Positions 4,028-59,514 of a stretch of 64,000 nt of DNA are shown in pieces. The translations under genes and the position numbers were made by a program. Source of the DNA: Amphiscolops sp. MND2022 (taxonomy: Eukaryota); assembly GCA_964187785.1 (NCBI GenBank), contig OZ076409.1, positions 74,340,001 to 74,404,000 on the forward strand, in the 5' to 3' direction. Positions within the stretch are counted from its first letter, which is position 1. Every line of letters starts with the position of its first letter. Below the pieces are notes generated by a model, which had not been told where the DNA came from, searched no databases, and saw only the letters and a program-made list of their open reading frames with translations.

Positions 4028-5296
4028 TGCCGGGATTACTATTCGATAAGGAATTTTGCGCGGTTGGGTAGGGCCCCGTGAGCGCGCCAGGGGATAGTGT
4101 TAGAACAACAAGGATTTGGGCATCAGTTGGGAGCGATTTTCTAAACTATCCGTACGATTTTGCTGAAATTTGGCACGAAGCTTCCTTGGAACATTCTAAG
4201 AACAAATCCCTACTGGCGTTTTGCTGGGAAAAATCAAAAAGTTGGTCAAAAATGCGATTTTCCGACAAAATTTTGGGGTAAAATTTTTTTGAAACGTTAT
4301 ATCTCGCCACAGGGTCACGCTAGCGCCTCGCAACCTATGATCGTGTTTTGTTGGGCGTTGTCTGTAGAACACGTATGCCAAATTTGGTGGCGATCGGACT
4401 TAAACTCAGGGAGATATAGCGATTTTTTAGGTGCATTTTTTGACATTTTTTGCATTTGCCGATTTATCTCTGCCGTTTTTGCCCAAATTTTTTTTGAGAC
4501 ACTCTCCTAAAGACCTCCCCTGGCCGGTTTACCTCCCAGAAAAACCATTTGGCCCTAAATACGAAGTTTCAGCGTTCTAGCATTCCCGGGCAAAAAGTTG
4601 TGGGACTTAGAATAGTTTTTATGGTAACGCAAAATGTGTAAAGTCAACTTCAGGCCTCCCAAAGTCAAAGAACTTCCACACAACTAGGATTGCAAGTGGG
4701 TGCATGTGAAAAGTACTCGGATAGACGAGAAAAATGAGCTATAGAACGACTCTGTAGCTTAACCTGACGTTGACTTATGACAATTTTAGTGTGAGCTTGC
4801 TATTTGGTGTAAAAATTCAAATGATGAAAATCGAAGCTAAGTCTCATCCAAAACTCATTGGAATACGTTCAATGCATCCCAAAGCGGATTAATTCGAGAT
4901 GTTTAGTGCAGCAACACCATTCAAGACCATTTGACCCATTTTTATAAGTTTTGACAACGTATTATTCATACGAGAGCACGAAACAGTTGAGTACATTCCA
5001 TCTCCCTTTCGGGGGAGATGAGAATGTACTCGCTAAAGTCCAGGTACTACAGCCCATATTTGCTTTTATGCGACGCTCTTATGCTAGTGCGCATACTTTT
5101 TAATCGTTTAACTGAATTTTCTTCTGTCTGCACTTTGACTTTGACTTGACATATAGTGAACGTTTTGTCTTACAACTTACAAATGAGTAACGTCAACGCC
5201 CCATCCTTGCATCAACGCCCACCGTCCGTGGGCATGCCGAGGCATGCCCTTCGACGACGTATGCCAAGATATATCCCAAGCGCGGTAGCAGCTAGG
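4028..5296 (+). mobile_element. Short unit, subtype D (1269 bp)
   Basis: Junction-bounded; near-identical copy at 7848. Confidence 0.78.
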
Positions 5297-6584
5297 TGCC
5301 GGGATTTTCTATTCGACAAGTTTGCGCGCCTTGGGGAGGGTCCCTTTGCGCGCTTTAAGATCCAGGTGTTTCCAACTCCTAAACGGGCATGTGATTTCGA
5401 CGATCTCCTAAACTAGCCATACGATTTGGCTGAAATTTGGCACACGTACCCCCCTCGGCACGGTGAAGATGATTTCCTACTGACGTTTTTCCCGCTAAAC
5501 ATTTTTTGTTGACCAAAATAACGGTTTTTGGGGTAAAATTTTCAACTTTTTTTAAATTTCATCTTATATCTCGCCACGGGTACACGCTAGCGCTTCAAAA
5601 CCTTGCTGACGAAAGCTTGCAAACTGTCTCGGGAATGCGGTGTGAAATTTTCAGCTCAATCGGACTTAAACTCGAGGAGATATAGCGTTTTTCCGGAGCG
5701 GGGGGGTTTCATTTTTCTAACGGTCCAGCTTATCTTTGCCATTTTTTCGAAAATGTACTCGTCTAAAGGCCTCCCCTGGCCGGTTTTATTCCCAGCAAAA
5801 CCATTTGGCCCTAAATACGGAGTTTCAGCGTTCCAGCATTTCCGGGCGAAAAGTTGTGGGACTTAGAAATTTTCAAAAATTTTCAAAAATTTTTTTTTCC
5901 GTTATTTGGTCCCCCAAAGTGGGGGAAAAGACCCCCCAACCAGTAAAGCAAGTGAAAGCATGTGCAAAGCCCTTGTTTGGACGAGAAAATTGCCGTTTAG
6001 AACGTCTTTTTATCTTGGCTCAACGTTGACTTATGACGTTTTGAAGGTGATGTTTGGAGGTGTAAAGCAAGTGATTAGTAAACGTTATGAGTATTTATCT
6101 GATCTGAAAGCCATTGAGATGCAATATGGTTTGCTCAAAACGTAATTCATTGCAGTTTGGCAATCAATCAACACCCTTTGTTGTCGTTTGACATACTTTT
6201 TTGTTGTTATAATAAAAAATTTTGTGTATTTATTCATTTTTTTCTCATCAAATAACTTGGAACAGTTGATTACATTCCATCCCCCCCTTCCGGGGGAGAT
6301 GAGAATGTACTCGCAAAAAGCACCGAACTACGGCCCTTACCTTCCCGAGCTACGCAGTATAAGGATTACATATTGGTTCCGACATTTTCATAGAGTTATA
6401 TCTTGGTAATCTGTCTGGATATGCCGAAAAATCAGCACGTGCCTTTTAATACCAAGTTGCTCACAACGACAATTATTTTATATCAACGCCCCCATATTTA
6501 TCAACGCCCCCCGTCCGTGGGCATGCCGAGGCATGCCCTTCGACGACCCGCACCAAAATATGCGTTAGCGCGGTAGCAGCTAGG
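5297..6584 (+). mobile_element. Short unit, subtype B (1288 bp)
   Basis: Junction-bounded; B body marker cacgtacccccctcggcacggtgaag. Confidence 0.78.
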
Positions 6585-7847
6585 TGCCGGGATTTCCATT
6601 CGATAAGGAATTCTGCGCGTGTGGGTAGGGCCCCTGGCGCGCTCCTGTGTTTTCGGTTTTCCTACTCCAAATTCACACATCGGTTATCTCGGATCTCGAA
6701 AACTAGCCACACGATTTGGCTGAAATTTGGCACACAGCTCCGTTGGAACATTGTAAGAACAAATCCCTACTGACGTTTTGCCCGCTAAACATTTTTTGTT
6801 GGTCAAAAATGCGATTTTCCGACAAAATTTTTGACTTTTTTTTCTTTTTCAACTCATATCTCGCCACAGGGTCACGCTAGCGCTTTGCAACCTATGATCC
6901 TTTTTTGTAGGGCGTTGTCTGTAGAACACGTATGCCAAATTTGGTGGCGATCGGACTTAAACTCAGGGAGATATAACGATTTTTTAGGTGCATTTTTTGA
7001 CATTTTTTGCATTTGCTGATTTATCTTTGCCGTTTTTTGCCCAGATTTTTTTTGAGACACTCTCCTAAAGACCTCCCCTGGCCGGTTTACCTCCCAGCAA
7101 AACCATTTGGCCCTAAATACGAAGTTTCAGCGTTCTAGCATTCCCGGGCGAAAAGTTGTGGGACTTAGAATAATTTTTTGGAAACGCAAAATGTGTAAAG
7201 TCAACTTCAGGCCTCCCAAAGTCAAGAAACTTCCACACAACTAGTATTGCAAGTGGATGCATGTGGAAAGTACTGGGATAGACGAGAAAAATGAGCTATA
7301 GAACGACTCTGTAGCTTAACTTGACGTTGACTTATGATGTTTTGAGTGTGTGCTTGCCAAGAGGTCCGAAATTGAAAATTTTTAAAGAAAATTAATATCG
7401 TTAAAAATTCATCGGAATGCCTGCGATATACAGTAGAGCGTGTTCAATTGTAGCTGACTAATGCATCAACGCTGTTCAAGGTCTTTTAACTCAGTTTCAA
7501 ATTTTTTTACACTGTATTATCCATCCGAGAGTTCGAAACAGTTGAGTACATTCCATCTCCCTCCCGAGGGAGATGAGAATGTATTCGCTAAAGTCCAGAT
7601 ACCACGACCCATATTTGTTTCTCTGCGACGCAAACATTTGCTAGTGCACATAAATAGTGATCTTTTGACTGAATTCTGTATTTACACAGACGTGACATAT
7701 GCTGAATGTTCGGTTCTTACAACATACACATGACTAACGTCAACGCCACATACTGTTACCAACGCCCACCGTCCGTGGGCATGCCGAGGCATGCCCTTCG
7801 ACGACGTATGCCAAATACCCTTTACCGACGCGCACTCTCCCGCTAGG
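6585..7847 (+). mobile_element. Short unit, D-related mosaic (1263 bp)
   Basis: Junction-bounded; D-like left body, right half shared with the unit at 47970. Confidence 0.78.
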
Positions 7848-9130
7848 TGCCGGGATTTCTATTCGATAAGGAATTTTGCGCGGTTGGGTAGGGCCCCGTG
7901 AGCGCGCCAGGGGATAGTGTTAGAACAACAAGGATTTGGGCATCAGTTGGGAGCGATTTTCTAAACTATCCGTACGATTTTGCTGAAATTTGGCACGAAG
8001 CTTCCTTGGAACATTCTAAGAACAAATCCCTACTGGCGTTTTGCTGGGAAAAATCAAAAAGTTGGTCAAAAATGCGATTTTCCGACAAAATTTTGGGGTA
8101 AAATTTTTTTGAAACGTTATATCTCGCCACAGGGTCACGCTAGCGCCTCGCAACCTATGATCGTGTTTTGTTGGGCGTTGTCTGTAAAACACGTATGCCA
8201 AATTTGGTGGCGATCGGACTTAAACTCAGGGAGATATAGCGATTTTTTAGGTGCATTTTTTGACATTTTTTGCATTTGCCGATTTATCTCTGCCGTTTTT
8301 GCCCAATTTTTTTTTGAGACACTCTCCTAAAGACCTCCCCTGGCCGGTTTACCTCCCAGAAAAACCATTTGGCCCTAAATACGAAGTTTCAGCGTTCTAG
8401 CATTCCCGGGCAAAAAGTTGTGGGACTTAGAATAGTTTTTATGGTAACGCAAAATGTGTAAAAAAAAATGTGAAAAGTCAACTTCAGGCCTCCCAAAGTC
8501 AAAGAACTTCCACACAACTAGGATTGCAAGTGGGTGCATGTGGAAAGTACTCGGATAGACGAGAAAAATGAGCTATAGAACGACTCTGTAGCTTAACCTG
8601 ACGTTGACTTATGACAATTTTAGTGTGAGCTTGCTATTTGGTGTAAAAATTCAAATGATGAAAATCGAAGCTAAGTCTCATCCAAAACTCATCGGAATAC
8701 GTTCAATGCACCTCAAAGCGGATTAATTCGAGATGTTTAGTGCAGCAACACCATTCAAGACCATTTGACCCATTTTTATAAGTTTTGACAACGTATTATT
8801 CATACGAGAGCACGAAACAGTTGAGTACATTCCATCTCCCTTTCGGGGGAGATGAGAATGTACTCGCTAAAGTCCAGGTACTACAGCCCATATTTGCTTT
8901 TATGCGACGCTCTTATGCTAGTGCGCATACTTTTTAATCGTTTAACTGAATTTTCTTCTGTCTGCACTTTGACTTTGACTTGACATATAGTGAACGTTTT
9001 GTCTTACAACTTACAAATGAGTAACGTCAACGCCCCATCCTTGAATCAACGCCCACCGTCCGTGGGCATGCCGAGGCATGCCCTTCGACGACGTATGCCA
9101 AGATATATCCCAAGCGCGGTAGCCGCTAGG
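7848..9130 (+). mobile_element. Short unit, subtype D (1283 bp)
   Basis: Copy of 4028-5296 with a 14-bp slippage insertion near 8460. Confidence 0.78.
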
Positions 9131-16781: not shown

Positions 16782-18098
16782 TGCCCGGATTTCTATTCAT
16801 TAAAGTATGTTGCGCGTGTGGGTAGGGCCCCTGGCGCGCTCTTGTGTCCCTGTTCTCATAACTGCAATTTCCGGCAGCATTCTGAGCGATTTTCTAAACT
16901 ATCCATACGATTCGGCTGAAATTTGGCATGTGAGTTCCTATAACAGTTCTAAGAAACATTTCCTACTGGCGTTTTGCCCGGAAAATTTTTTTTGTTGACT
17001 TATAACGGTTTTTTTGGCCAAAAAATGCAATTTTTTCAAAAAATTTTTTTTTTCGGAGCCCATATCTTTTTTCAGGGTGCCCGGAGCGGGACGCGTTAAA
17101 CTGATTATAAACTCTACGGTTCATGGGCTTTACGGAGAACCTAGGCTCGTTTCGATCGGACAAATAGTCTTGGAGATATAACGGCATTTTTTGGGAATTT
17201 TTTGGAAATTTTTCTAACGGTCCAGCTTATCTTTGCCATTTTTTCGAAAATGTACTTGCCTAAAGGCCTCCCCTGGCCGGTTTTAATCCCAGCAAAACCA
17301 TTTGGCCCTAAATACGGAGTTTCAGCGTTCCAGCATTCCCGGGCGAAAAGTTGTGGGACTTAGAAAAATTTCAAAATTTTTCAAAAAATTTTTTTTCCGT
17401 TTTCCGCCCTCCCCCCCGAGGGGAAAAGACCCCCCAACCAGTAATTTGAGTGAATTCATGTGGAAAGGCCATGTTTAGAGAAGAAAAATGCCGTTTAGAT
17501 CGTCTTTTTATTTTAACCTGTCGTTGACTTATGTTGTTTTGAAGGTGATGTTTGGATGTGTGAAGCATGTGAAAAGGTAATTTATTGTGTCTTTAGCTCT
17601 TCTAAAAGTCATTGAGATACACGGTGTGTGACTCAGAACGTGTTTAATTCTAATTTAGCAATGCATCAACACTTTTTTGTGTCTTTTGACTCTGTTTTAA
17701 AAAATTTTTCCGACTAAAATCAAAAATTATTTATAATTATTGACATTTTTTTCTGATCTCATGACTCGAAACAGTTGAGTACATTCCATCTCCCTTCACG
17801 GGGGAGATGAGAATGTACTCTTTAGAGACCAGGTACTACAGTACTTACCTTCCCCGAGCAACGTCCCATAAAAATTGCGTTTTGATCCAGATATTTTGAC
17901 ATAATTCTATCTTTGTAATTTGACTGGAAATGAAGAAAATGCCGCACGTGCTCTTTTATATCAAGTATCTTAACAACGCCATCTCTTTTACGTCAACGCC
18001 CCATAGTTCACATCAACGCCCACCGTCCGTGGGCATGCCGAGGCATGCCCTTCGACGACGTATACCAAGATATACTCCCCAGCGCGGTAGCCGCTAGG
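16782..18098 (+). mobile_element. Short unit, subtype E (1317 bp)
   Basis: Junction-bounded; close copy at 20678. Confidence 0.78.
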
Positions 18099-19387
18099 TG
18101 CCGGGATTTCTATTCGATAAAGTATGTTGCGCGTGTGGGTAGGGCCCCTGGCGCGCTCTTGGGTATGGTGTTCACCAGCTAGGAAATAGGGGTCGATTTT
18201 TCGGGATCTCCTAAACTAGCCACACGATTTGGCTGAAATTTGGCACACGTACTCCCCTCGGCATGGTGAAGATGATTCCCTACTAGCGTTTTGCTCGCAA
18301 AATTTTTTTTGTTGTCCAAAATAACGGTTTTTGGTGGAAAATTTTGAACTTTTTTTAAATTTCATCTTATATCTCGCCACGGGTTTACGCTAGCGCTTCA
18401 AAACTTTGCTAAAGAAAGCTTGCAAACTGTCTCAGGAATGCGGTGTGAAATTTTCAGCACAATCGGACTTAAACTCAAGGAGATATAGCGTTTTTCCGGA
18501 GCGGGGGGGTTTCATTTTTCTAACGGTCCAGCTTATCTTAGCCATTTTTTCGAAAATGTACTCGCCTAAAGACCTCCCCTGGCCGGTTTTATTCCCAGCA
18601 AAACCATTTGGCCCTAAATACGGAGTTTCAGCGTTCCAGCATTCCCGGGCGAAAAGTTGTGGGACTTAGAAAAATTCAAAAATTTTCAAAAATTTTTTTT
18701 CGGTTTTCCGCCCTCCCCCCCGAGGGAAAAAGACCCCCCAACCAGTAATTTGAGTGAATTCATGTGGAAAGGCCATGTTTAGAGGAGAAAAATCCCGTTT
18801 AAATCGTCTTTTTATCTTTATTCAACGTTGACTTATGACGTTTTGAAGGTGATGTTTGGAAGGTGTGAAGCACGTGAAAAGTAAACGTTATGAGTATTTA
18901 TCTGATCTGAAAGCCATTGAGATGCAATCTGTTTTGCTCAAAACGTAATTCATATCCGTTTGGTAGTCAATCAACACCCTTTGTTGTCATTTGACATCTT
19001 TTTTTTTGTTGATATAAGAAAAAATTTTGTGTATTTATTCATTTTTTTCTCATCAAATAACTTGAAACAGTTGAGTACATTCCATCCCCCCTTCACGGGG
19101 GAGATGAGAATGTACTCGCAAAAAGCCCCAAACTACGGCCCTTACCTTCCTGAGCTACGCAGTATAAAGATTGCATATTGGTTCCGACATTTTGATAGAG
19201 TTATATCTTGGTAATCTGTCTGGATATGCAGAAAAACCAGCACGTGCTTTTTTATACCAAGTTGCTCACAACGACATTTATTTTATATCAACGCCCCCAT
19301 ATTTATCAACGCCCCCCGTCCGTGGGCATGCCGAGGCATGCCCTTCGACGACGTATACCAAGATATGTTCGAGCGCGTTAGCCTAGG
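18099..19387 (+). mobile_element. Short unit, subtype B (1289 bp)
   Basis: Junction-bounded; relatives at 26539 and 33070. Confidence 0.78.
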
Positions 19388-24543: not shown

Positions 24544-26538
24544 TGCGGGGGGGTAACCCCAACTTTTTTCTTGGAGGAATCGGGTAGGGTCCTGATTCCG
24601 AGCTTAGTGCCGCCAGCTATCGTTAAAAACCCATACCTTTTAAACCCGATCTCGGGAACTAACCACGCCCCTTCTTTAATTTTTTGGCCCCCACTCACTT
24701 TTTGAGAGTAGATCGCCCCCCACTGGGTTCCAAGTTGGGCAAAAATGGAGGTCATGGGTAACGGGGACCGTTAAGGGGTAACTCAGGGGGTAAAATTTAT
24801 TTTTTGCGTCATATCTTTTCCCCCCGTGGATTTAGCGCTTCCGGTCAGCAGACAAAACCTCATGTACGTGATAAGGGGCCTCCGTAGGTCCAAACAAAAT
24901 TTTTCTATCATGCACCGTTACGGACTTGCCCCCCCGGCCCAACCGTTATTTTGCCGGAAATTGCCTTTTTTGACAGGGAAGGAGTCGTCTGAGCACGGAG
25001 TCGTTTGGTAATGTTTTGTAGTGCATCTGGAGACGTGTTGGGGGACATGTAGTTTGCCGACCCCAGTTTACCCCTCGGACGGGAAATGACCGTTATGTGA
25101 GTTTTAAAAATGCCCCCCTTCAATTTTCCCCGCAATTTCCGGTGTGAAGGAGTGGGAGTAGGGTGTCGGGTGCCATATATCAAAAGTAGGTTTAGACAAG
25201 GACCAACCGGAAACATGTGGTTTCGGACCCCCTGACCCAACCCGTTAGCCGCTATTAGGGTGATCGCCTCCTTTTTTTGCTGTTAAAACCGGAAAACGGG
25301 CATTGAGGGGTAAATATCTCGTGAACGCGTGGAGCAATCGTGTCCATCACTACTACAAGGTTTCATACCCATGATACGGTGCCTTCAGGGGGGCAAACAG
25401 ATTACCGCTATCTATCACCGTTACCGACTTGGCCCCCCAGCCTAACCGCTATGTGACCGGAAATTGCACTTTTTGAGCCCAAAGGGTCGATCCTAGCCGG
25501 GCAACGTTAGGTAACTTATTGTAGTACTCATTGAGACGAGTTGGGGGATCTAGTTTCAGTCACCCCCCGTTACCCCTTGAGACCGGAAATGACCGTTATG
25601 TGAGTAGAATTGCAATTTTTATACCTTTTGAAGGGCATTTAGGTGCGGAAGGAATGGTAATAGGTGCTTGGACACTATATGATGTAATGGAGGTCGTGAG
25701 GAGAGCATTCGGAAGTAACCGTTACGTTGACCCCAAAGTCCCCCTGGTACCGTTAACAACCGGAAATGGCCAGATTTTGTGTTTGTGGGGTACAAATGTT
25801 TGGTATTTTATAGATAAAAGTACCTGGAAGGTGTTTTAAAGGCCTCCAGAAGCGAACATAGTCATGAAACTTTGTGGGGGGTAACGGTATATAGCACCGG
25901 AAGTCCAAACCGTTAGTTACTGAATAGGTTTTTTGGTTTCAAAATGTCTTTAGGCGTAGTTTTGTGGGTTGAATCGTCATAATATCAACTAATACGGACT
26001 TTTTTCGGAAATAAAATTTTTTCACATTAGTTTCAGGGACCTCCAATGTTTCAGTCAACATAACCGTTACATTTTGATAGCCTTTCAAGTTGGCCTGGTG
26101 TCAACTTGGAAGGGCTATCCTTCTAAAATCGTTAATCAAGAGTGTTTTTGGGTAGGTATATGTTGCATTAGTACCAATTAGAGCTTCATCAACAGTTTGC
26201 CAACGGCAAAAACGATGTCGTGATAATTCCGTTATAAGAATATTAATTAACAAATTGTTTCTAAAGTTGATTTTTTCCATTCGAAATGTGTCCTAATGCG
26301 ACCAAATTGAATAAAATAATAAATGGTATTGACTAAAACTAAATAACAATGAAAAAGAAGATCAACATTTTTATTAGGTCTCATTATGGAAGCTGAAACC
26401 TCACGTTTTAACTTGATTAACGTCAACGCCACATACTTTACATCAACGCCCACCGTCTGTGGGCATGCCGAGGCATGCCCTTCGACGACGTATACCAAAC
26501 AACCTCCATATCTACACCCAATTGCGGTAGCAGCTAGG
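24544..26538 (+). mobile_element. Long unit (1995 bp)
   Basis: Same junctions, head loop and right-end block as short units but a different interior; relative at 51218. Confidence 0.8.
26076..26119. other. Internal ~44-nt imperfect hairpin of long units (representative copy)
   Basis: GATAGCC-TTTC-AAGTTG-GCCTGGTGT-CAACTT-GGAAG-GGCTATC; present in all 8 long units. Confidence 0.9.
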
Positions 26539-27826
26539 TGCCGGGATTTCTATTCGTTCGAGTATGTGGCGCGTGTGGGTAGGGCCCCTGGCGCGCTCTT
26601 GGGTATGGTGTTCACCAGCTAGGAAATAGGGGTCGATTTTTCGGGATCTCCTAAACTAGCCACACGATTTGGCTGAAATTTGGCACACGTACCCCCCTCG
26701 GCACGGTGAAGATGATTTCCTACTGACGTTTTTCCCGCAAAATTTTTTTTGTTGTCCAAAATAACGGTTTTTGGGGTAAAATTTTGAATTTTTTTTAAAA
26801 TTTATCTTATATCTCGCCACCGGTTTACGCTAGCGCTTCAAAACCCTGCTAAAGAAAGCTTGCAAACTGTCTCAGGAATGCGGTGTGAAATTTTCAGCTC
26901 AATCGGACTTAAACTCGGGGAGATATAGCGTTTTTCCGGAGCGGGGGGGTTTCATTTTTCTAACGGTCCAGCTTATCTTTGCCATTTTTTCGAAAATGCA
27001 CTTGCCTAAAGGCCTCCCCTGGCCGGTTTTATTCCCAGCAAAACCATTTGGCCCTAAATACGGAGTTTCAGCGTTCCAGCATTCCCGGGCGAAAAGTTGT
27101 GGGACTTAGAAAAGTTCAAAAATTTTCAAAAAATTTTTTTTCCGTTTTCCGCCCTCCCCCCCTAGGGGAAAAGACCCCCCAACCAGTAATTTGAGTGAAT
27201 TCATGTGGAAAGGCCATGTTAAGAGGAGAAAAATGCCGTTTAGAACGTCTTTTTATCTTGGCTCAACGTTGACTTATGACGTTTTGAAGGTGATGTTTGG
27301 AAGGTGTGAAGCACGTGAAAAGTAAACGTTATGAGTATTTATCTGATCTGAAAGCCATTGAGATGCAACCTGTTTTGCTCAAAACGTAATTCATATCCGT
27401 TTGGTAGTCAATCAACACCCTTTGTTGTCATTTGACATCTTTTTTTGTTGATATAAGAAAAAATTTCGTGTATTTATTCATTTTTTTCTCATCAAATAAC
27501 TTGAAACAGTTGAGTACATTCCATCCCCCCTTCACGGGGGAGATGAGAATGTACTCGCAAAAAGCCCCGAACTACGGCCCTTACCTTCCTGAGCTACGCA
27601 GTATAAAGATTGCATATTGGTTCCGACATTTTGATAGAGTTATATCTTGGTAATCTGTCTGGGTATGCAGAAAAACCAGCACGTGCTTTTTTATAGCAAG
27701 TTGCTCACAACGACATTTATTTTATATCAACGCCCCCATATTTATCAACGCCCCCCGTCCGTGGGCATGCCGAGGCATGCCCTTCGACGACGTATACCAA
27801 GATATGTTCGAGCGCGTTAGCCTAGG
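26539..27826 (+). mobile_element. Short unit, subtype B (1288 bp)
   Basis: Junction-bounded; relative of 18099. Confidence 0.78.
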
Positions 27827-31789: not shown

Positions 31790-33069
31790 TGCCGGGATTT
31801 CTATTCGATAAAGTAAGTTGCGCGGTTGGGTAGGGCCCCGTGAGCGCGCCCGTGTCTGTGTTTTTTGAACCTGAATTTGCGGGTGCCAAAATAGACGATC
31901 TCCTAAACTATCCATACGATTTTGCTCAAATTTGGCATACGGGTTCCTGAGACAGATATAAGAACTAATTCCTACTGGCGTTTTGCCCGGAAAATTTTTT
32001 TTGTTGCGCAAACTTGAAATTTTTGACAAAAAAATGCGATTTTTTTTGAAAAATTTTTTTTGAGAGGCCATATCTTTTTTCAGGGAGCCCGGAGCGGGAC
32101 GCGTTAAACTGATTATAAACTCTACGGTTCACGGGCTGTACGGGGAACCTATTTTTGTTGGAATCCGACTTGTAGATTTTGAGATATATTATCAAATTTG
32201 GGTGTTTTTTCTCCAATTTTTCGAAAAACCTGGTTTATCTCTGCCGTTTTTTGCCCAGATTTTTTTCTAGACCCTCTCCTAAAGGCCTCCCCTGGCCGGA
32301 TTACGTCCCAGCAAAACCATTTGGCCCTAAATACGAAGTTTCAGCGTTCTAGCATTCTCGGGCGAAAAGTTGTGGGACTTAGAAAATTTTTTTTTAAAAC
32401 GCAAAATGTGTAAAGTCAACTTCAGGCCTCCCAAAGTCAAGGAACTTCCACACAACTAGGATTGCAAGTGGATGCATGTGGAAAGTGCTTGAATAGACGA
32501 GGAAAATGAGCTATTATAAAACTCTGTAGCTTAACCTGACGTTGACTTATGACAATTTTAGTGTGAGCTTGCTATGTGGGAAAAAATTTCAAAAATTGAA
32601 AATCGAAGCTAAGTCTCATCCAAAACTCATCGGAATACGTTCAATCCATTCCAAAGCGGTTTACTTCCAGCTTTAGACTGCAGCAACACTATTCAAGACC
32701 ATTGTACCCCTTTATATTAGTTTTGACATTGTATTATTCATCCGAGAGCACAAAGCAGTTGAGTACATTCCATCTCCCTTTCGGGGGAGATGAGAATGTA
32801 CTCGCTAAAGAACACGTACTACAGCCAATTTTTGTATTTATGCGAAGCCATTCTATGCTATTGCACATAACAACTATGCTATTGACTTAATTTTGCCTAC
32901 ACTTTGCTATGACATATGCTAAACGTTTGGTCCTTACAACAACATACACATGACTAACGTCAACACCACATACTGTTACCAACGCCCACCGTCCGTGGGC
33001 ATGCCGAGGCATGCCCTTCGACGACGTATGCCAAATACCTTCCAGCGACGCTCGCGCTTCCCGGCTAGG
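31790..33069 (+). mobile_element. Short unit, subtype A (1280 bp)
   Basis: Near-identical to 178-1457. Confidence 0.8.
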
Positions 33070-34180
33070 TGCCGGTATTTCTATTCGATAAAGTATGTGG
33101 CGCGTGTGGGTAGGGTCCCTGGCGCGCTCTTGGGTATGGTGTTCACCAGCTAGGAAATAGGGGTCGATTTTTCGGGATCTCCTAAACTAGCCACACGATT
33201 TGGCTGAAATTTGGCACACGTACTCCCCTCGGCATGGTGAAGATGATTTCCTACTGACGTTTTTCCCGCAAAATTTTTTTTGTTGTCCAAAATAACGGTT
33301 TTTGGGGTAAAATTTTGAATTTTTTTTAAATTTCATCTTATATCTCGCCACGGGTTTACGCTAGCGCTTCAAAACCCTGCTAAAGAAAGCTTGCAAACTG
33401 TCTCAGGAAGGCGGTGTGAAATTTTCAGCTCAATCGGACTTAAACTCAGGGAGATATAGCGTTTTTCCGGAGCGGGGGGGTTTCATTTTTCTAACGGTCC
33501 AGCTTATCTTAGCCATTTTTTTGAAAATTTACTCGCCTAAAGACCTCCCCTGGCCGGTTTTATTCCCAGCAAAACCATTTGGCCCTAAATACGGAGTTTC
33601 AGCGTTCCAGCATTCCCGGGCGAAAAGTTGTGGGACTTAGAAAATTTCAAAAATTTTCAAAAATTTTTTTTTCGGTTTTCCGCCCTCCCCCCCGAGGGGA
33701 AAAGACCCCCCAACCAGTAATTTGAGTGAATTCATGTGGAAAGGCCATGTTTAGAGGAGAAAAATCCCGTTTAAATCGTCTTTTTATCTTTATTCAACGT
33801 TGACTTATGACGTTTTGAAGGTGATGTTTGGAGGTGTAAAGCACGTGAAAAGTAAACGTTATGAGTATTTATCTGATCTGAAAGCCATTGAGATGCAACC
33901 TGTTTTGCTCAAAACGTAATTCATATCAGTTTGGCAATCAATCAACACCCTTTGTTGTCGTTTGACATCTTTTTTTGTTGTTATAATAAAAAATTTTGTG
34001 TATTTATTCATTTTTTTCTCATCAAATAACTTGAAACAGTTGAGTACATTCCATCCCCCCCTTCCGGGGGAGATGAGAATGTACTCGCAAAAAGCACCGA
34101 ACTACGGCCCTTACCTTCCCGAGCTACGCAGTATAAAGATTGCATATTGGTTCCGACATTTTCATAGAGTTAAATCTTGG
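33070..34180 (+). mobile_element. Left part (1111 bp) of an interrupted subtype B unit
   Basis: Stops at aatcttgg, where intact relatives continue taatctgt; the remainder is at 36718-36893. Confidence 0.85.
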
Positions 34181-35448
34181 TGCCGGGATTACTATTCGTT
34201 CGAGTATGTGGCGCGTGTGGGTAGGGCCCCTGGCGCGCTCTTTTATTTCGGGTACACCTACTCCAAATTCACGATGTGATTTCGACGATCTCGTAAACTA
34301 GCCACACGATTTGGCTGAAATTTGGCACACGTACCCCCCTCGGCACGGTGAAGATGATTCCCTACTGATGTTTTGCCCGCTAAACATTTTTTGTTGACCA
34401 AAATAACGGTTTTTGGGGGAAAATTTTGAACTTTTTTTAAATTTCGTCTTATATCTCGCCACGGGTTTACGCTAGCGCTTCAAAACCTTGCTAACGAAAG
34501 TTTGCAAACTGTCTCAGGAATGCGGTGTGAAAATTTCAGCCCAATCGGACTTAAACTCGAGGAGATATAGCGTTTTTCCGGAGTGGGGGGGTTTCATTTT
34601 TCTAACGGTCCAGCTTATCTTTGCCATTTTTTCGAAAATGCACTCGCCTAAAGGCCTCCCCTGGCCGGTTTTATTCCCAGCAAAACCATTTGGCCCTAAA
34701 TACGGAGTTTCAGCGTTCCAGCATTCCCGGGCGAAAAGTTGTGGGACTTAGAAAATTTCAAAATTTTTCAAAAAAATTTTTTCCGTTATTTGGGCCCCCA
34801 AAGTGGGGCAAAAGACCCCCCAACCAGTAAAGCAAGTGAATGCATGTGGAAAGCCCTTGTTTAGACGAGAAAATGGCGTTTAGAACGTTTTTTTATCGTA
34901 ACTTGACATTGACATTTGTCGTTTTGAAGGTGACCGTTAGATACGGAAAATTGATGTTTTGAGTGTTTATCCCATCTGAAAGCCATTGAGATACAACATG
35001 TTTTGCTCAAAACGTGTTTCATTGCAGTTTCGCTGTCCATTAACACCCTTTGGTGTCTTTTGACGTAATTTTTTTTTCTATAATAACAATTTCTTTGTGT
35101 ATTTATTCATTTTTTTCTCATCAAATAACTTGAAACAGTTGAGTACATTCCATCTCCCTTCCCGGGGGAGATGAGAATGTACTCGCTAAAGGTCAGGAAC
35201 TACGGTCTATATCTTCCACAACACAAAAGAGATTGCAAATTGTTTCAGTTTGTCGCAGAAAACTTCTTTTTGCACTCTGTGACTCGACAAAGTGAACGTT
35301 TCTTACTTACTTTGAATCTCACCATACCACAACTCATCTCTAACGTCAACGCCCCCCACACACATCAACGCCCCCCGTCCGTGGGCATGCCGAGGCATGC
35401 CCTTCGACGACGTATAGCAAAATATATTCGAACGCGGTAGCGGCTAGG
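34181..35448 (+). mobile_element. Nested short unit, copy 1 (1268 bp)
   Basis: Starts directly after CTTGG instead of CTAGG. Confidence 0.85.
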
Positions 35449-36717
35449 TGCCGGGATTACTATTCGTTCGAGTATGTGGCGCGTGTGGGTAGGGCCCCTG
35501 GCGCGCTCTTTTATTTCGGGTACACCTACTCCAAATTCACGATGTGATTTCGACGATCTCGTAAACTAGCCACACGATTTGGCTGAAATTTGGCACACGT
35601 ACCCCCCTCGGCACGGTGAAGATGATTCCCTACTGACGTTTTGCCCGCTAAACATTTTTTGTTGACCAAAATAACGGTTTTTGGGGGAAAATTTTGAACT
35701 TTTTTTAAATTTCGTCTTATATCTCGCCACGGGTTTACGCTAGCGCTTCAAAACCTTGCTAACGAAAGTTTGCAAACTGTCTCAGGAATGCGGTGTGAAA
35801 ATTTCAGCCCAATCGGACTTAAACTCGAGGAGATATAGCGTTTTTCCGGAGCGGGGGGGTTTCATTTTTCTAACGGTCCAGCTTATCTTTGCCATTTTTT
35901 CGAAAATGCACTCGCCTAAAGGCCTCCCCTGGCCGGTTTTATTCCCAGCAAAACCATTTGGCCCTAAATACGGAGTTTCAGCGTTCCAGCATTCCCGGGC
36001 GAAAAGTTGTGGGACTTAGAAAATTTCAAAAATTTTCAAAAAAATTTTTTCCGTTATTTGGGCCCCCAAAGTGGGGCAAAAGACCCCCCAACCAGTAAAG
36101 CAAGTGAATGCATGTGGAAAGCCCTTGTTTAGACGAGAAAAATGGCGTTTAGAACGTTTTTTTATCGTAACTTGACATTGACTTTTGTCGTTTTGAAGGT
36201 GACCGTTAGATACGGAAAATTGATGTTTTGAGTGTTTATCCCATCTGAAAGCCATTGAGATACAACATGTTTTGCTCAAAACGTGTTTCGTTGCAGTTTC
36301 GCTGTCCATTAACACCCTTTGGTGTCTTTTGACGTAATTTTTTTTTCTATAATAACAATTTCTTTGTGTATTTATTCATTTTTTTCTCATCAAATAACTT
36401 GAAACAGTTGAGTACATTCCATCTCCCTTCCCGGGGGAGATGAGAATGTACTCGCTAAAGGTCAGGAACTACGGTCTATATCTTCCACAACACAAAAGAG
36501 ATTGCAAATTGTTTCAATTTGTCGCAGAAAACTTCTTTTTGCACTCTGTGACTCGACAAAGTGAACGTTTCTTACTTACTTTGAATCTCACCATACCACA
36601 ACTCATCTCTAACGTCAACGCCCCCCACACACATCAACGCCCCCCGTCCGTGGGCATGCCGAGGCATGCCCTTCGACGACGTATAGCAAAATATATTCGA
36701 ATGCGGTAGCGGCTAGG
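35449..36717 (+). mobile_element. Nested short unit, copy 2 (1269 bp)
   Basis: Near-identical to 34181-35448; ends CTAGG followed by taatctgt of the host unit. Confidence 0.85.
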
Positions 36718-36893
36718 TAATCTGTTTGGGTATGCAGAAAAACCAGCACGTGCTTTTTTATACCAAGTTGCTTACAACGACAATTATTTTATATCAACGC
36801 CCCCATATTTATCAACGCCCCCCGTCCGTGGGCATGCCGAGGCATGCCCTTCGACGACGTATACCAAGATATGCGTTAACGCGTTAGCCTAGG
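36718..36893 (+). mobile_element. Right part (176 bp) of the interrupted unit starting at 33070
   Basis: 1111+176=1287 bp, matching intact relatives (1288-1289 bp). Confidence 0.85.
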
Positions 36894-42709: not shown

Positions 42710-44684
42710 TGCGGGGGGGAAACCCCAACAAAATTTTTGGAGGATTCGGGTAGGGTCCTGAATCCGAGTTCAGTGCTGCCAGCTTTCGTTAAGAAAATTT
42801 GGATAGGATTCGGGATCTCGTGATCTAACCATAGGATTTCAAAGTTGGAGCGGCCCCCACCAGATTTTCCGAAAATTAGCGCCCCCCACCGGGTTCCATA
42901 CCCCGGAAAATTTTTTTCTGGCCACACGGGCGACCGTTAGGGGGTCATTTTAGGGGTAAAATTCATATTGGGCCACATAACTTTTTTCCTGTTGGTTTAA
43001 AACTTTGGGACCCTGCTAAAAGTTTCTTGACCGTGTTGCAGGGGCCCCGGAGGTCCAAACCAAAATTTTCTATCTTGAAGCTATCTCCAAGTACCCCCCC
43101 GCCCAAAACGTTATTTTTCCGGAAACGCAGGTTTTTGACCCGGAAGGAGTCGTCGGAGCGCGGGGTCGTTAGGTGATGTATTGGGGACGGCCTTGAGACG
43201 AAGCGGGGGACATGCAGTTTGCCAACCCCAGTTTACCCCCCGGACGGGAAATGACCGTTATATGAGCGGGAAAAATGCCCCCTTCCACGTTTTACCGCTA
43301 TTTTCGGTGTGAAGGAGTGGAAGTAGCGCGTCGGGTGCCATATATCAAAAGTAGGTTTAGACAAGGACCTATCGGAAACATGTGGTTTGGGACCCCCTGG
43401 ACCAACCCGTTAGCGGGAAATGGGGCTTCCGCCTCCTTTTTTTACTGCTAAAACAGTAAAATGGGCATTGAGGGGTAAATATCTCGTGAACGCGTGGAGC
43501 TACGGTGTCCATCACTACTACAAGGTTTCATACCCATGATATGGTGCCTTCAGGGGGGCAAACAGATTTCCGCTATCTATCACCGTTACTGACTTGGCCC
43601 CCCAGCCTAACCGCTATGTGACCGGAAATGTCACTTTTTGAGCCCAAAGGGTCGGTCCCAGCCAGGGAACGTTAGGTAACTTATTGTAGTACTCATTGAG
43701 ATGAGTTGGGGGACATAGTTTCAGTCACCCCCCGTTACCCCTTAGGACCGGAAATGACCGTTATGTGAGTAAAATTGCCATTTTTGTCCTATTTGAAGGG
43801 CATTTAGATGCGGAAGGAGCGGTAATAGGTGCTTGGACACTATATGATGATAGGGAGGACGTGAGGCGAGCTTTCGGAATTAACCGTTATGTTGACCCCA
43901 AAGTCCCCCTGGTACCGGAAGTGACCCGTTATGGTCAAATTTTGTGTTTAAAGTGTACAAATGTTTGGTGTTTTTTGGATAACAGTACCTATTAGGTGTT
44001 TCGACGGTCTGCAGTCGTGAACATAGTCATGAAACCTTGTGGGGGGTAAAGGTATATAGCACCGGAAGTCCAAACCGTTGGAGACAGGATAAGTTTTTTG
44101 GTTTTAAAATGTCTTTCGGCCTACTTTTGTTGACTATTATGGACTATTTTTGAAAAATAAATTTTTTCCAAATAGTTTCAGAGACTCCGAAAACTCAACC
44201 AACATAACCGTTACCTTATGATAGCCTTTCAAGTTGGCCTGGTGTCAACTTGGAAGGGCTATCCTTCAAAAATCATTAATCAAGTGTAATTTTGAGTATG
44301 TTTGTATTACTTTAGAATCAATTAGAGCTTCAAGAAAAGTTTGCCAACGATAAAAACTATGTCGTGATGATTCCTTTATTAGAATAATAGTTAACAAAAT
44401 ATTGATAAAGTTGATTTTTTACACTTTAAATGTGTTCTAAATGCCAGAAAACCTCTTTACCAAACAAATGGAATTGATTGAATTGTATATAACAGCTAAT
44501 AAAACTTCAAATTGAATATTAGGTTTCATTATGGAAGCTGAAACGTCAAATTATAGTTTAATTAACGTCAACGCCACATACTTTACATCAACGCCCACCG
44601 TCCGTAGGCATGCCGAGGCATGCCTTTCGACGATGTATACCAAATTCCATCCACACAACACCCCCGAGCGCGGTAGCAGCTAGG
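42710..44684 (+). mobile_element. Long unit (1975 bp)
   Basis: Junction-bounded; carries the A:T palindrome variant at 44606-44625. Confidence 0.8.
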
Positions 44685-44715
44685 TGCGGGGGGGTAACCC
44701 CAACTTTTTTCTTGG
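44685..44715 (+). mobile_element. 31-bp stub of a long-unit head ending at CTTGG
   Basis: tgcgggggggtaaccccaacttttttcttgg matches the heads at 24544 and 51218, which continue aggaatcggg. Confidence 0.85.
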
Positions 44716-54502: not shown

Positions 54503-55777
54503 TGCCGGTGTTTTCTTCACTTTTGAGGAAGTTGCGCGTGTGGGTAGGGCCCCTGGCGCGCTCCGTTGTCCCTGTGTTTACATCTTAGAAAATTTGAGTA
54601 AAAAAATGGGATCTCGAAAACTGGCCACACGATTTGGCTGAAATTTTGCATACGGCTCCCTATGACAGTTGTAAGAACTAATCCCTAGTGGCGTTTTGCC
54701 CGGAAAATTTTTTTTGTTGACTTATTCACATTTTTAGGGTCAAAAAATGGCGTTTTTTTGAAAATTTTTTTTTTCAGAGACAATTACTCGAAACTGGTGC
54801 ACCCAGCGCAGTAACGCCTAGCTGATTTATTGTTGGGCATTTCATGAGGAGTCCGTATACAAATTTTCGTCCAAATCGGATAAAAAATGATTGAGAAATA
54901 ACTGAAAATTTGAGGAATTTTTTGGGAAATTTTCGAAAACCCAGTCTATCTCTGCCGTTTTTTGCCCAGATTTTTTTTGAGACACTCTCCTAAAGACCTC
55001 CCCTGGCCGGTTTTCCTCCCAGCAAAACCATTTGGCCCTAAATACGAAGTTTCAGCGTTCTAGCATTCCCGGGCGAAAAGTTGTGGGACTTAGAAGAATT
55101 TTTTGGAAACGCAAAATTTGTAAAGTCAACTTCAGGCCTCCCAAAGTCAAGGAACTTCCACACAACTAGTATTGCAAGTGAATGCATGTGGAAAGTACTC
55201 GGATAGACGAGAAAAATGAGCTATAGAAAGACTCTGTAGCTCAACCTGACGTTGACTTATGATGTTTTGAATGTGTGCTTGCTAAGGGGTCCGAAACTGA
55301 AAATTTTTAAAGAAAATTAATATCGTCAAAAATTCATCGGAATGCCTGCAATATACAGTAGAGCGTGTTCAATTGTAGCTGATTAATGCATCAACGCCGT
55401 TCAAGGTCTTTTAACTCAGTTTCAAAATTTTGTACACTGTATTATTCATCCGAGAGCACAAAACAGTTGAGTACATTCCATCTCCCCTCCGTGGGAGATG
55501 AGAATGTACTCGCTAAAGTCCAGGTGCTACAGCCCATATTTGTTTTTTTGCGGCGCTATTTATGCTAGTGCGCATACTTTTTAATCGTTTAACTGAATTT
55601 TCTTCTGTCTGCACTTTGACTTTGACTTGACATATAGTGAACGTTTTGTCTTACAACTTACAAATGAGTAACGTCAACGCCCCATCCTTGCATCAACGCC
55701 CACCGTCCGTGGGCATGCCGAGGCATGCCCTTCGACGACGTATGCCAAGATATATCCCAAGCGCGGTAGCAGCTAGG
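54503..55777 (+). mobile_element. Short unit, C-related mosaic (1275 bp)
   Basis: Head as 47970, tail as 4028 and 7848. Confidence 0.78.
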
Positions 55778-57166
55778 TGGTTGGGGCGGTCCCCAGAACG
55801 CACAAGGAGGCGCGGGGAGGGTCCTGCGCCGACGTAGAATAATTTCATATAATACTAGTATCCTACATGGGTGTTTTAGAGGCGATTTTGGAATCTAACC
55901 GTAGGATTTGGATAATTTTTTGCATGCGGCCATAACTCGAAATTCTAAGAACTTTTTCCTACTGTCATTTTCCCCGCAAATTGTTTTTTGTTGACTTACG
56001 GCCGAAAAACCGGAAATAACGTCCTTTTTAGACGTTATATCCGAAGTGTCGTCATAACTTTTTTCCAGGGCATGCTAGCGTTCTCGTTCACTTTTACACT
56101 TAGTTGCAGCATCTCAAAATACAACTGGTGGAAAGTTTTGGTTGCATTCGGATCACCCCCCACCGAGATAGAAGGGTTCCCCCCTCCAGTTTTACCCCCC
56201 AAATTTGCAAAATAGCCAATTTTGAGCATGAAGCCGAGGATTTAGCGTACCCGCTCCCTCCTGATGTTTTGTTGTACGTATTGGGGTCAATCTGACGACA
56301 TGTGTGGTTTTCACCCCCAACCCCCCCTTGGACCGGAAATGACACTTTTTTGTGTTTTTTGGCAGAATTTAGCCTTTTTCATTATTAGGCAGTCGTTTTA
56401 GGGACTCCTAGCAGGATATCGAAATTGAAATACAACCTGATCACAACCCAGTGACAATATGTTGGCCACTTGGAGGTATCATCATGACCGGAAGTGCGGT
56501 CAACCCCCCTTTTTGTGACCGCTTTTTGACCTTGTGCACCAAAATGCCAACATCTTGAGGCCTAATGAGGCATTCAAATCTGTACAAAGATAAAATGTTA
56601 GACAACCGAAGTCCCGGAAGATCTTTAGCATATACCGGAAGTTACCCCCCATGACCGGAAGTTACCCAATGTGACCGGAAATGGTCCAAAAATTAATGTA
56701 AAGTTGAATTTTTCACTATTTCAAGACCACTTAATTGAAACTTTTCAATCTCAAAACTAGCCTACTGGCTTGTTTTGCTGAATTTATGGAAATTGATGAG
56801 CTCTATCGCCCCCGATAGCCTTCGAAGTTGACCTTGCGTCAACTTTGGAGGCTATCGATAAAGAAAAATGAACAACAAAGTACATTGTTGCTCTCGTTTT
56901 TTTCCCGTTGTTTTTCCTCAAACATTCTTGAGACATATACATGGCCGTTAGTTGAAATCAATTTTTAGCCCATGTTATAGCTGGAGCAGCGAAGCGTTAC
57001 ACAGACTAGTGTGGTTTTGAAATTACATTATTTAAATTAACAACTGACCGTCTTAGTCAACTCCACACATTCATACCAACGCCCACCGTCTGTGGGCATG
57101 CCGAGGCATGCCCTTCGACGACGTATGACGAATCCACTCCAACGACACCCGCAGTCCTCAGCTAGG
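55778..57166 (+). mobile_element. Divergent unit, third family (1389 bp)
   Basis: Unique interior; keeps the head loop GAGGGT, a long-type hairpin at 56813-56857, the palindrome block and CTAGG. Confidence 0.78.
56634..56686 (+). repeat. Three ~20-bp tandem copies of ACCGGAA(G/A)T motif
   Basis: accggaagttaccccccatg accggaagttacccaatgtg accggaaatggtcc. Confidence 0.75.
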
Positions 57167-58441
57167 TGGCCGGGAACTTTTTTTCCTGCATTTTTCTGTC
57201 CAATTGGGGGAGGGGCCCCAAGTGGCTGTTATCCGGTTTTACTACCTACCCTAAACACGCTCAAAAAATGACGATCTCGAAAACCACCCCTTAGATTTTC
57301 CTGAAACTTTGCATACAGGCTTAGAATCAAATCCTAAGAACTATTTCCTACTGGCGTTTTTCTGAATTTTTTCAAAAAGTTGGTCAAAAATGCAACAAAA
57401 GTTGCCAATGGACATAAAAAACGCAACTTTTCGACTTTGAGGGCTCATAACTTTTCCCAGAGTGCCCGGAGCAATTCGCACAGTAAGAACAATATTGCTC
57501 AGCATTGTTGGAGGAGTGCGTGGACAAATTTGGGGTTGAATTGGATGAAAATTGACTGAGAAATAAACGAAAATTTTGGTGCATTTGTTGCAAATACCAG
57601 TTTATCTCTGCCATTTTCGCCCAAAATTTTTCCCAGAGCCTTTACAGGAGGCAACCCCTGCCCAAATTTCTGCCGAGCAAACCCATTTGGCCCTACATAC
57701 GAGGTTTCAGCGTTCTAGCATTTCCTGGCAAAAAGTTGTGGGACTCAGAAAAATTTCAAAAAAAACGCAAAAATTGTAAAAATTAACTTCTGGCGTCCCA
57801 AAGTCAAAAAACTTTCACACAACTAGTATTGCAAGTGAATGCATGTGGAAAGTACTTGCATAGACGAGAAAAATGAGCTATAGAACGACTCTGTAGCTTA
57901 ATCTGACGTTGACTTATGACATTTTGAGTGTGAGCTTCCTATAGGATTTTAATGTCAAAAATGAGATTTTGTAAGTCATGTCTAATCAAAAACTCATCGG
58001 AATACGTTCAATCATCCCCATAGCTGTTCAATTACAGTGGCTCAGTAGAGCAACGCCATTTAATGTCCTTGGACCCATTTTGAAAATTTTCCTTACCGTC
58101 TTATTCGTCCGATATCACGAAACAGTTGAGTACATTCCATCTCCCCCCTTGTGGGGGAGATGAGAATGTACTCGCCAAAGACCTGATACAGTGGCCCATA
58201 TTGAGTTTTATTTGACTTTTCTCACGATATTGCACACGGATAGCTGTGTTTGGTAAAAGTTTTCCTTTGCACAATGTCTCCAGAAGCTAAACCACTTCTT
58301 TAGCTTACACTTCTACTCAAACATCACCAACGTCAACGCAACATACTCGCATCAACGCCCACCGTCCGTGGGCATGCCGAGGCATGCCCTTCGACGACGT
58401 ATGCCAAATAGCGCCACCTGGCGCCCCCAATTTCCGCTAGG
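57167..58441 (+). mobile_element. Diverged short unit (1275 bp)
   Basis: Short-type layout with many substitutions; hairpin and palindrome intact. Confidence 0.78.
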
Positions 58442-59514
58442 TGGTCAAGGGGGATGCCCATCAGAAAATATTGCGAGGCCGGGGAGGGTCCCGAGAGCCG
58501 AGCACATTCTATCAATTCCTACCTTCAGGATTGCGAAGTATTTTAACCGATCTCGAAATTCACCCGTAGGATTTGTCTGAAACTTTGCATGTGGCTTTAT
58601 CTCAAAAATTTAAGAATTTTTTTCTGCTGACGTTTTTCCAGGAAAATTCATTTTGTAGGGTTTTTTTGGGTTTTTTTGGTTTTTTTTCATCTTTTTTCAT
58701 CTTTGATTAATCAATGACCGAATCAAAGGCCATTTTCACCATGAAGGAAAGCCCGTAGCGGCAAAGTGCACTTTTATGAAAATCATCAACGGTCAACGGT
58801 CTTTCGAACGGTCCGAAAAAATTCCCCCCCGGGGGAAACCAAAGTGCCGAAAAGTGCCAAAATTATTTTTTTGACTGAATCAATTTGATCAAATTGATGA
58901 TTTGAGCAGCCGGAACGGTCCGCACGGTCTCGGACAATAAGGTCAAAAATTGTCAGCATCCAATGGGGGTTCCAAAAATGTAATTCGTTCACCTGTAGGA
59001 GACATCAGAAAAAAGTTGATTTTTTGGGGTATATGTCATTATGAGTGATTGGATGAGAAATAATGGTATCACTTTCAGTTGGATATGATGCAGCACAGGA
59101 AGCAGCTGCAGCAAACTTGAAACTGATTATGGGGCTGGGGTTTACCCTCTGTATCGAGCAAAATATCCCTTGGGCAAAAGGTATGCCAAAAAGTGCCTCA
59201 AAGTGCTAATTAAGTTGTTGCAAATCGGCTAGCAAAATTCCTTTGTCACCGGTGTTCCGTGAGTTGCGCAGCATCTCGCGGGAACAACGGTGCTTGTTTC
59301 GAACGCAAAACCCAACATACCTCTTTGGTGACGTGACGGAGGTCACCATTGGCCTTTTTCGGCAGTGTGATGATATTTTTAATGTTGAATTGTGAACAAC
59401 ATACACAAAAGATTTAGCGTGGGATATTTGTTTGTGTCATACTTCAGTAACAAACTTTCAACCGTTTTGTTTAGGCCTCTACCTAGCAGTGCTCTAAATC
59501 GCTCCATCGCTAGG
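58442..59514 (+). mobile_element. Divergent unit, fourth family, without the palindrome block (1073 bp)
   Basis: Family-type head (ggggagggtccc; gatctcgaaa...gatttgtctgaaactttgca), unique body, ends exactly at GCTAGG. Confidence 0.72.

Follow-up and report, generated by a model that had tools for sequence, protein, structure and literature searches.

A split repeat unit in an Amphiscolops array points to rolling-circle, off-target insertion of Helitron-like elements

The window analysed here is a stretch of 64,000 nucleotides from Amphiscolops sp. MND2022 (contig OZ076409.1, positions 74,340,001 to 74,404,000), and over its whole length (1-64000) it consists of a one-way mixed array of Helitron-like units joined at CTAG^GTG, where the caret marks the boundary between neighbours. 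These units measure 1.07-2.0 kb, lie head to tail on a single strand and carry no long open reading frames (ORFs). Our subject is one unit of this array, at 33069-36892, that is split by two copies of another Helitron-like element. All window features described below lie on the forward strand.

The 5′ part of the split host unit runs from its initial GTG to an internal CTTG (33069-34179, the boundary being set by the target analysis below) and is 96.7% identical to the matching part of the unit at 18099-19387. This CTTG (34176-34179) is the left half of the target site, which is cut after 34179. There follow two copies of a non-autonomous Helitron-like element of the form GTG...CTAG, namely copy 1 with 1,268 bp (34180-35447) and copy 2, of the same family, with 1,269 bp (35448-36716). 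The host then resumes with a 3′ part of 176 bp (GTAATC...CTAG; 36717-36892), whose first two bases form the right half of the target and which is 96.0% identical to intact relatives. Two such relatives, at 18098-19386 and 26538-27825, have the uninterrupted site at 19207 and 27646, respectively, and the CTTGGTAATC site is found unbroken in six intact units of the window. Among the units of 1,280-1,295 bp examined that bear this pseudo-site, the best intact relative of the host reaches 97.4% identity.

The insert as a whole is 2,537 bp long and approximately 85% identical to the host. Copy 2 is 98.7-99.5% identical to 12 further distinct loci among the genome stretches examined. Because the inserted copies lie approximately 0.5% from their own relatives, whereas the host lies approximately 2.6-3% from its own, the insert is younger than the host. 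The two copies may have come together as a dimer or sequentially, and their divergence and alleles favour neither course: the copies are 7 substitutions and one indel apart, each is 6-7 substitutions from a copy on contig C2, and no private alleles are shared.

The original prediction had read this locus as a nested insertion with no sequence gained or lost, and we find the junction sequences at the coordinates it gave. In those coordinates, host halves of 1,111 bp (33070-34180) and 176 bp (36718-36893) sum to 1,287 bp, and once joined they align at 96.6% identity to 18099-19387 and at 96.1% to 26539-27826, with a right half of 176 bp in both. The insertion is thus clean with respect to the host. 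The accompanying claim that the units are mobile is also supported, given an independent recurrence on another contig, matching empty sites for solo insertions, and near-identical units with differing neighbours, each of which is described below.

Across the 1.07-Gb genome, each of the two junction patterns is present at exactly two places, the window locus and 25.69 Mb on contig C8. The C8 host differs from the window host at 44 positions, its insert is a 1,322-bp element of a different family, and another element has entered this host 13 bp further along, at CTGG^GT. Because both the host copy and the inserted family differ, the two events are independent, and this independence argues against misassembly. 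The split-unit structure is not due to chance. A transposase-free origin, either through microhomology-mediated recombination or template switching between units or as an assembly error, might still be proposed for so repetitive an array, particularly as CT.GGT matches at 5/6 bases and the available read contigs (7 short pieces) span no junction. We consider such an origin very unlikely: the identical base was used independently on another contig by another family, solo insertions in unrelated DNA show the same motif with both ends intact, and exact restoration of the host would demand a reciprocal accident at both ends.

The target was defined from 3′ ends that are not followed by GTG (78 + 26 + 22 + 3 matches, with most of the first two sets fetched). 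Placing the 5′ end by homology resolved 39 of approximately 100 sites, and false or mutated junctions (L139, L056), one locus with an orientation error (L131) and five segmental paralogues were left out before the flanks were tallied. Among the 39 sites, position -4 is C in 32, -3 is T in 38, -2 is A, C, G or T in 10, 10, 5 and 14, and -1 is G in 34; past the cut, +1 is G in 24, A in 10 and T in 5, and +2 is T in 35. The motif CTNG^DT describes 28 sites, compared with approximately 0.3% expected per site, and the looser YTNR^DT describes 32. A wider set of 94 right flanks has G, A and T at +1 in 53, 26 and 15 cases and T at +2 in 81, with position +3 biased by the search pattern.

Since the element still starts with GTG at 15 sites that have A or T at +1, and still ends with CTAG or CTGG at five sites without G at -1, the cut can be placed at CTTG^GT and the element defined as GTG...CTAG. 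This moves all unit boundaries one base to the left and replaces the exchange point within GG(T) that had been proposed earlier. A target logo built from non-canonical junctions, as suggested with the original prediction, does uncover a site preference, although it is CTNG^DT and not CTWGG; CTWG^G fits just 11 of the 39 sites, the middle base may be any of the four, and the G after the cut is dispensable. Our own interim target, CTDGG^T, was dropped because solo insertions can have A or T at +1. At L132 (CTAG^GT) and L109 (CTAG^GA), paralogous copies of the host repeat preserve the empty site, which equals the filled one exactly. As a separate observation, the insertions at L064, L084 and L109 occupy one identical position of an unrelated host tandem repeat and involve at least two element families, and L064 carries an additional 3-kb element at its left junction.

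The flanking bases also bear on whether a site-specific recombinase (tyrosine or serine, Crypton-like) might integrate circular units by exchange within a CTWGG(T) core. Such an enzyme would account for the lack of sequence gain or loss and for the resemblance between core and junction. Recombinase chemistry, however, requires an identical overlap region, and at many sites (CTTG^AT, TTTA^GT) target and element differ beside the cut on both sides, leaving no such overlap. Moreover, long units with the same ends encode RepHel, the Rep-helicase protein of Helitrons, and the 10 ORFs scanned gave no Pfam match to any tyrosine or serine recombinase family. We therefore regard this explanation as exceedingly improbable.

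The elements begin with GTG, and the 3′ termini of 76 family representatives read CTAG in 72 cases and CTGG in three, the remaining one being the split host half. A conserved 20-bp palindrome ends approximately 45 bp before the element end and occurs at 35383-35402 in copy 1, at 36652-36671 in copy 2 (45 bp short of the terminal CTAG end) and at 36830-36849 in the host, and exists in 4,940 exact copies in the genome. Its likely role, judged from Helraiser (PMC4778049), is that of a terminator hairpin. At the other end, a conserved motif near +40 occupies the loop of a subterminal stem-loop in 62 of the 76 families, with covarying stems, and is found at 33108-33118 in the host, 34219-34229 in copy 1 and 35487-35497 in copy 2. 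Stems of at least 5 bp with family-specific sequences surround the motif in 32 of 40 distinct motif-bearing 5′ ends (18% with arms swapped between families). With a 3′ palindrome on one side and a 5′ stem-loop on the other, a resident junction presents CTAG^GT between two structured ends. Terminal inverted matches of at least 8 bp were found in just 1 of the 76 representatives.

Autonomous partners are present in the same arrays. Element B (C1:74326874-74338889, L020/L019) is 12,016 bp long, ends 1,111 bp upstream of the window and has a 2,350-amino-acid RepHel frame with HUH, two-tyrosine and Walker A motifs. It matches the window unit at 6584-7846 at 95% over the first 786 bp and at 92% over the last 87 bp, and because both ends are shared it is an autonomous partner of the non-autonomous units. 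Element A (13,675 bp) has a 2,377-amino-acid frame matching Helitron_like_N, PIF1 and GIY-YIG. Like the inserted family, it begins with GTG, ends with CTAG and carries the 5′ motif, and it is 77% identical to that family along 306 bp; in place of the conserved palindrome it has a weak hairpin only. Helitron_like_N and PIF1 score above the Pfam cut-offs in both elements, whose proteins are 30% identical. By hand count, the segment C1:70.5-76.5 Mb accounts for 35 of 150 listed Rep matches; all 35 share the strand of the array, and 28 are in open frames of at least 2,200 amino acids. Frames of 2,345-2,350 amino acids that resemble the one in element B recur along the array. Element A (L038) also has two frames downstream of RepHel, at 5223-6389 (reverse strand, 389 amino acids) and 7362-8027 (reverse strand, 222 amino acids), which lack Pfam matches and are kept in three copies, as well as internal tandem repeats of approximately 76 bp and 38 bp.

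Judged by their sequences, these elements appear to behave as Helitrons: they have a RepHel partner with shared ends and, with one 35-bp exception, no target-site duplication. They conform to neither of the two groups of Helitron-like elements, HLE1 and HLE2, as defined in PMC11417382 and PMC3627910. The 3′ ends agree with the CTRR terminus of HLE1. The 5′ end is GTG and not the TC of HLE1, the base counts beside the cut correspond neither to A^T (HLE1) nor to T^T (HLE2), and the inverted repeats of HLE2 are missing in all but the single family noted above. Neither DUF6570 nor APE gave a match at an E-value of up to 1 in element A or B, with the presence of a DUF6570 model in the library unconfirmed.

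A search of 1.84 billion representatives returned 334 homologues at an E-value of up to 1e-30. Among the 101 of these proteins with a complete C-terminus, 99 have a GIY-YIG domain after the helicase, as detected with a profile built from 11 of the 101, and two ESM Atlas clusters join PIF1 to GIY-YIG in 88% and 98% of their members. The structural model of the domain (predicted local distance difference test score, 91.8) best matches At-HIGLE, with a Z score of 12.4 (root-mean-square deviation, 2.6; 111 aligned), followed by Slx1 (Z 11.3 and 10.6), as against I-TevI (Z 4.5), and all 11 Foldseek matches at an E-value of up to 0.001 are Slx1 or HIGLE. The predicted fold is therefore SLX1-like. 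Element A and 29 of 35 aligned domains retain the residues Tyr, Arg, His and Glu, which we take to be catalytic in SLX1-like GIY-YIG nucleases, but element B has others in their place. I-TevI cleaves at CNNNG, and a likeness between this motif and our target was dropped since +1 is variable and the fold is SLX1-like. We speculate that the domain might help to recognise or nick structured junctions.

Genome-wide, 4,673 of the 3′ ends read CTAG^GTG compared with at most 129 others, some of them double-listed or mutated, such that approximately 97% (~4,670/4,800) adjoin another element. In the stretches examined we delimited 233 units, which fall into 76 families at 93% identity. By contrast with the number of junctions, a comparison of 101 right flanks against the unit library revealed only 5 nested insertions, a count that leaves out 25 matches of the last two sets and 2 on C1258. 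Two of the five lie on C8 and one is the window locus; of the remaining two, one sits at +65 and duplicates 35 bp, and the other is inserted in antisense near +23. Each of 229 units has on average approximately 4.7 internal CTNG^DT sites (1.6 sense and 3.1 antisense), and yet there are 5 nested insertions against approximately 4,670 junction contacts; the short motif is thus insufficient to explain the specificity. Per site, junctions are used approximately 4,000-fold more than internal motifs of the same arrays, a figure that is arithmetic on standing copies only. All four distinct nested sites lie within 200 bp of a junction, where the expected fraction is 0.34 for CTNG^DT and 0.61 for CTDGGT, which is at most suggestive of clustering near junctions.

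The neighbours of near-identical units indicate how the array was built. Among 11 pairs that are at least 99.5% identical, the left-neighbour family is shared in none, the right in one and both in none, and among 37 pairs at a threshold of 99%, both neighbouring families are shared in one. The inserted family includes two copies that are free of substitutions relative to each other and whose neighbours nevertheless differ on either side. Because most ends adjoin other elements, nesting is rare and near-identical units have differing neighbours, it is likely that the array was assembled unit by unit through insertion at resident junctions, with the locus at 34179/34180 representing a rare miss. 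Block copying is present but minor.

A simpler proposal is that these Helitrons have a short CTNG^DT preference only, and that arrays result from concatemers, read-through, local hopping and loss of dispersed copies, without any junction recognition. Adjacent units belong to one family more often than by chance (27/208 versus ~5%), certain unit pairs recur jointly at distant loci, and terminator read-through has been shown for Helraiser (PMC4778049). Only 3 of the 27 same-family pairs are at least 99% identical, however, and the 76 families are interleaved. Furthermore, selection and chromatin should be the same for junctions and internal sites within arrays, and the per-site excess at junctions persists there (5 versus ~4,670). 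We find this proposal unlikely, albeit less so than those involving recombinases or recombination accidents.

We consider it probable that the split unit arose when two non-coding GTG...CTAG copies entered CTTG^GT through rolling-circle transposition of the Helitron type. This would be a rare off-target insertion, the family in question likely directing most of its insertions to the junctions of resident copies. In the scheme we envisage, whose steps of nicking, displacement, circle formation and strand transfer are modelled on descriptions of Helraiser (PMC4778049, PMC5876387), RepHel would nick at CTAG^GT, one strand would be peeled off, the circle would close at the next CTAG, and the circle would then be joined into a target cut at CTNG^DT. 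Helraiser is reported in those same sources to form circles whose own end-to-end junction is cleaved precisely. Given that the target resembles the circle junction, the best target of all might be a junction where two resident elements meet end to end, with a 3′ hairpin on one side and a 5′ stem-loop on the other, and repeated insertion at such junctions would yield mixed arrays. Each insertion would make or keep a target because the target mimics the circle junction, and so arrays would grow. At the window locus, the insertion would then have missed such a junction and entered a site of similar sequence that lies 176 bp inside a unit.

More tentatively, and with rather less than even confidence, we propose that an undescribed but widespread Helitron clade, marked by the fusion of RepHel with an SLX1-like GIY-YIG domain, homes to structured junctions of any family. 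These would serve as a shared, self-renewing landing pad from which multi-megabase mosaic arrays, and possibly centromeric DNA, could be produced.

Several points weigh against the reading of the locus as an off-target event of junction-homing Helitrons. The contigs from one read run (12/30 bins) span neither junction and are evidence neither way. Only 39 of approximately 100 sites could be placed, two pairs among them share a host site, and 11 deviate from CTNG^DT. The junction bias is computed from standing copies and may be overestimated if dispersed copies are selected against or arrays turn over; decayed solo insertions are missed by exact patterns. In four of 37 near-identical pairs a neighbour is also at least 98% identical, which points to some multi-unit copying. 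Joining is sometimes unclean, with a 35-bp duplication at one nested insertion and a deletion-like junction in the window. The 3′ palindrome common to the units is missing from element A. In element B, the predicted catalytic residues of the GIY-YIG domain are absent, yet the element lies at a perfect junction, so this nuclease activity is dispensable in cis for B.

Known systems share some of these features. Canonical Helitrons (HLE1, including Helraiser and wheat Xuan-Feng; PMC4778049, PMC5876387, PMC13286980, PMC11417382) likewise have a RepHel with HUH, two tyrosines and PIF1 helicase, a 3′ CTAG with an upstream palindrome, no target duplication, and non-autonomous derivatives that share their ends. 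They differ in that they start with TC and insert at A^T, with a hairpin 10-15 bp from the end as opposed to approximately 45 bp here, and the present elements are further set apart by the 5′ stem-loop, the C-terminal GIY-YIG domain and the approximately 97% of ends that adjoin another element. Similarity to Helraiser was found in the helicase only (E-value 2.4e-6). HLE2 elements (Helitron2/Helentron, and HelenSM92 of Sphagnum; PMC11417382, PMC3627910) have hairpins near both ends and an extra nuclease fused to RepHel, namely APE in Helentrons and GIY-YIG in HelenSM92. Unlike these, our elements have no terminal inverted repeats (1/76 families) or T^T target and gave no APE match in element A or B, and whereas the GIY-YIG of HelenSM92 is reported as a capture in one family (PMC11417382), here it extends across the clade (99/101).

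In plants and bats, Helitrons in tandem (cited in PMC5876387, PMC11934779 and PMC13404089) likewise form large one-way arrays with head-to-tail junctions. These have been attributed to rolling-circle concatemers, whereas the neighbours observed here belong mostly to other families and identical copies are differently flanked. Xenopus is reported to have small arrays derived from Helitrons, with two to seven repeats each (PMC12001565). The telomere-repeat Helitrons of Paramecium resemble ours as a divergent clade with oriented, sequence-directed integration, but their target is the host telomere repeat instead of their own junction, and the main text does not mention GIY (PMC13085455).

Outside the eukaryotes, the IS91 family of rolling-circle insertion sequences is also similar. 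Its target is CTTG/GTTC, and we know of no megabase mixed arrays formed by its members. PMC10288648 describes an HUH transposase and oriented insertion beside a tetranucleotide without duplication, as in our elements, although the IS91 family is prokaryotic and has neither a fused helicase nor GIY-YIG. In the parts available to us, PMC13286980, PMC10288648, PMC13269885 and bioRxiv 10.64898/2026.09.17.752431 do not describe the present system. More broadly, the GTG...CTAG/CTNG^DT code and junction homing were not found in a literature search whose coverage mostly excludes subscription journals, and the HELIANO supplements, with their 'unclassified' Helitron-like elements, could include the clade. 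Tandem Helitrons are already known, and what appears new within the searched literature is the end and target code together with junction homing. A report on Helitron tandem arrays may, however, mention GIY-YIG-bearing families.

How Helitrons choose their targets, and how a transposon is converted into a megabase array, are open questions to which this locus speaks. Rare misses give the cut site to the base and show an array arising from unit-level insertion, not block duplication. With many intact transposase frames within the array, junction targeting is directly testable. A eukaryotic rolling-circle transposase capable of footprint-free, kilobase insertion at a definable site might also have potential as a gene-insertion tool.

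Several further observations were made in the course of this analysis. At L125 (C1 ~76.234-76.236 Mb), a nested insertion duplicates 35 bp of host sequence and has the right junction TTTA^GT, and at L122 (C1 ~72.44 Mb) an antisense element has entered another unit at TTTA^GT, approximately 23 bp in from the 5′ end of the latter. At 44684-44714 of the window, a 2-kb family is represented by a 31-bp stub that stops at CTTG, after which comes a full unit; the remaining host, which in intact copies continues with GAGG, is absent. The arrangement looks like an insertion accompanied by a deletion, or like initiation at a site resembling the proper one. The junction at 59514 was considered as a second nested insertion and rejected, since a 1,073-bp family that does not carry the shared palindrome has its usual 3′ end there. 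This family, which retains the GTG and CTAG ends, is one of three divergent families (1,389, 1,275 and 1,073 bp) at 55777-59513. At distant loci (L052, L064, L097, L101) a 3-kb family ending in CTGG is followed by the same 1.3-1.4-kb families, suggesting read-through and co-mobilisation. The region at C1 ~70.5-76.5 Mb, on a contig of 104 Mb, is a one-way multi-megabase array and possibly a candidate for centromeric DNA. Finally, the flanks of small arrays and solo insertions contain a hAT transposase frame, an RGS-domain frame and retroelement-like frames (L034:7379-9277, reverse strand; L041:5830-7437, forward strand; L035).

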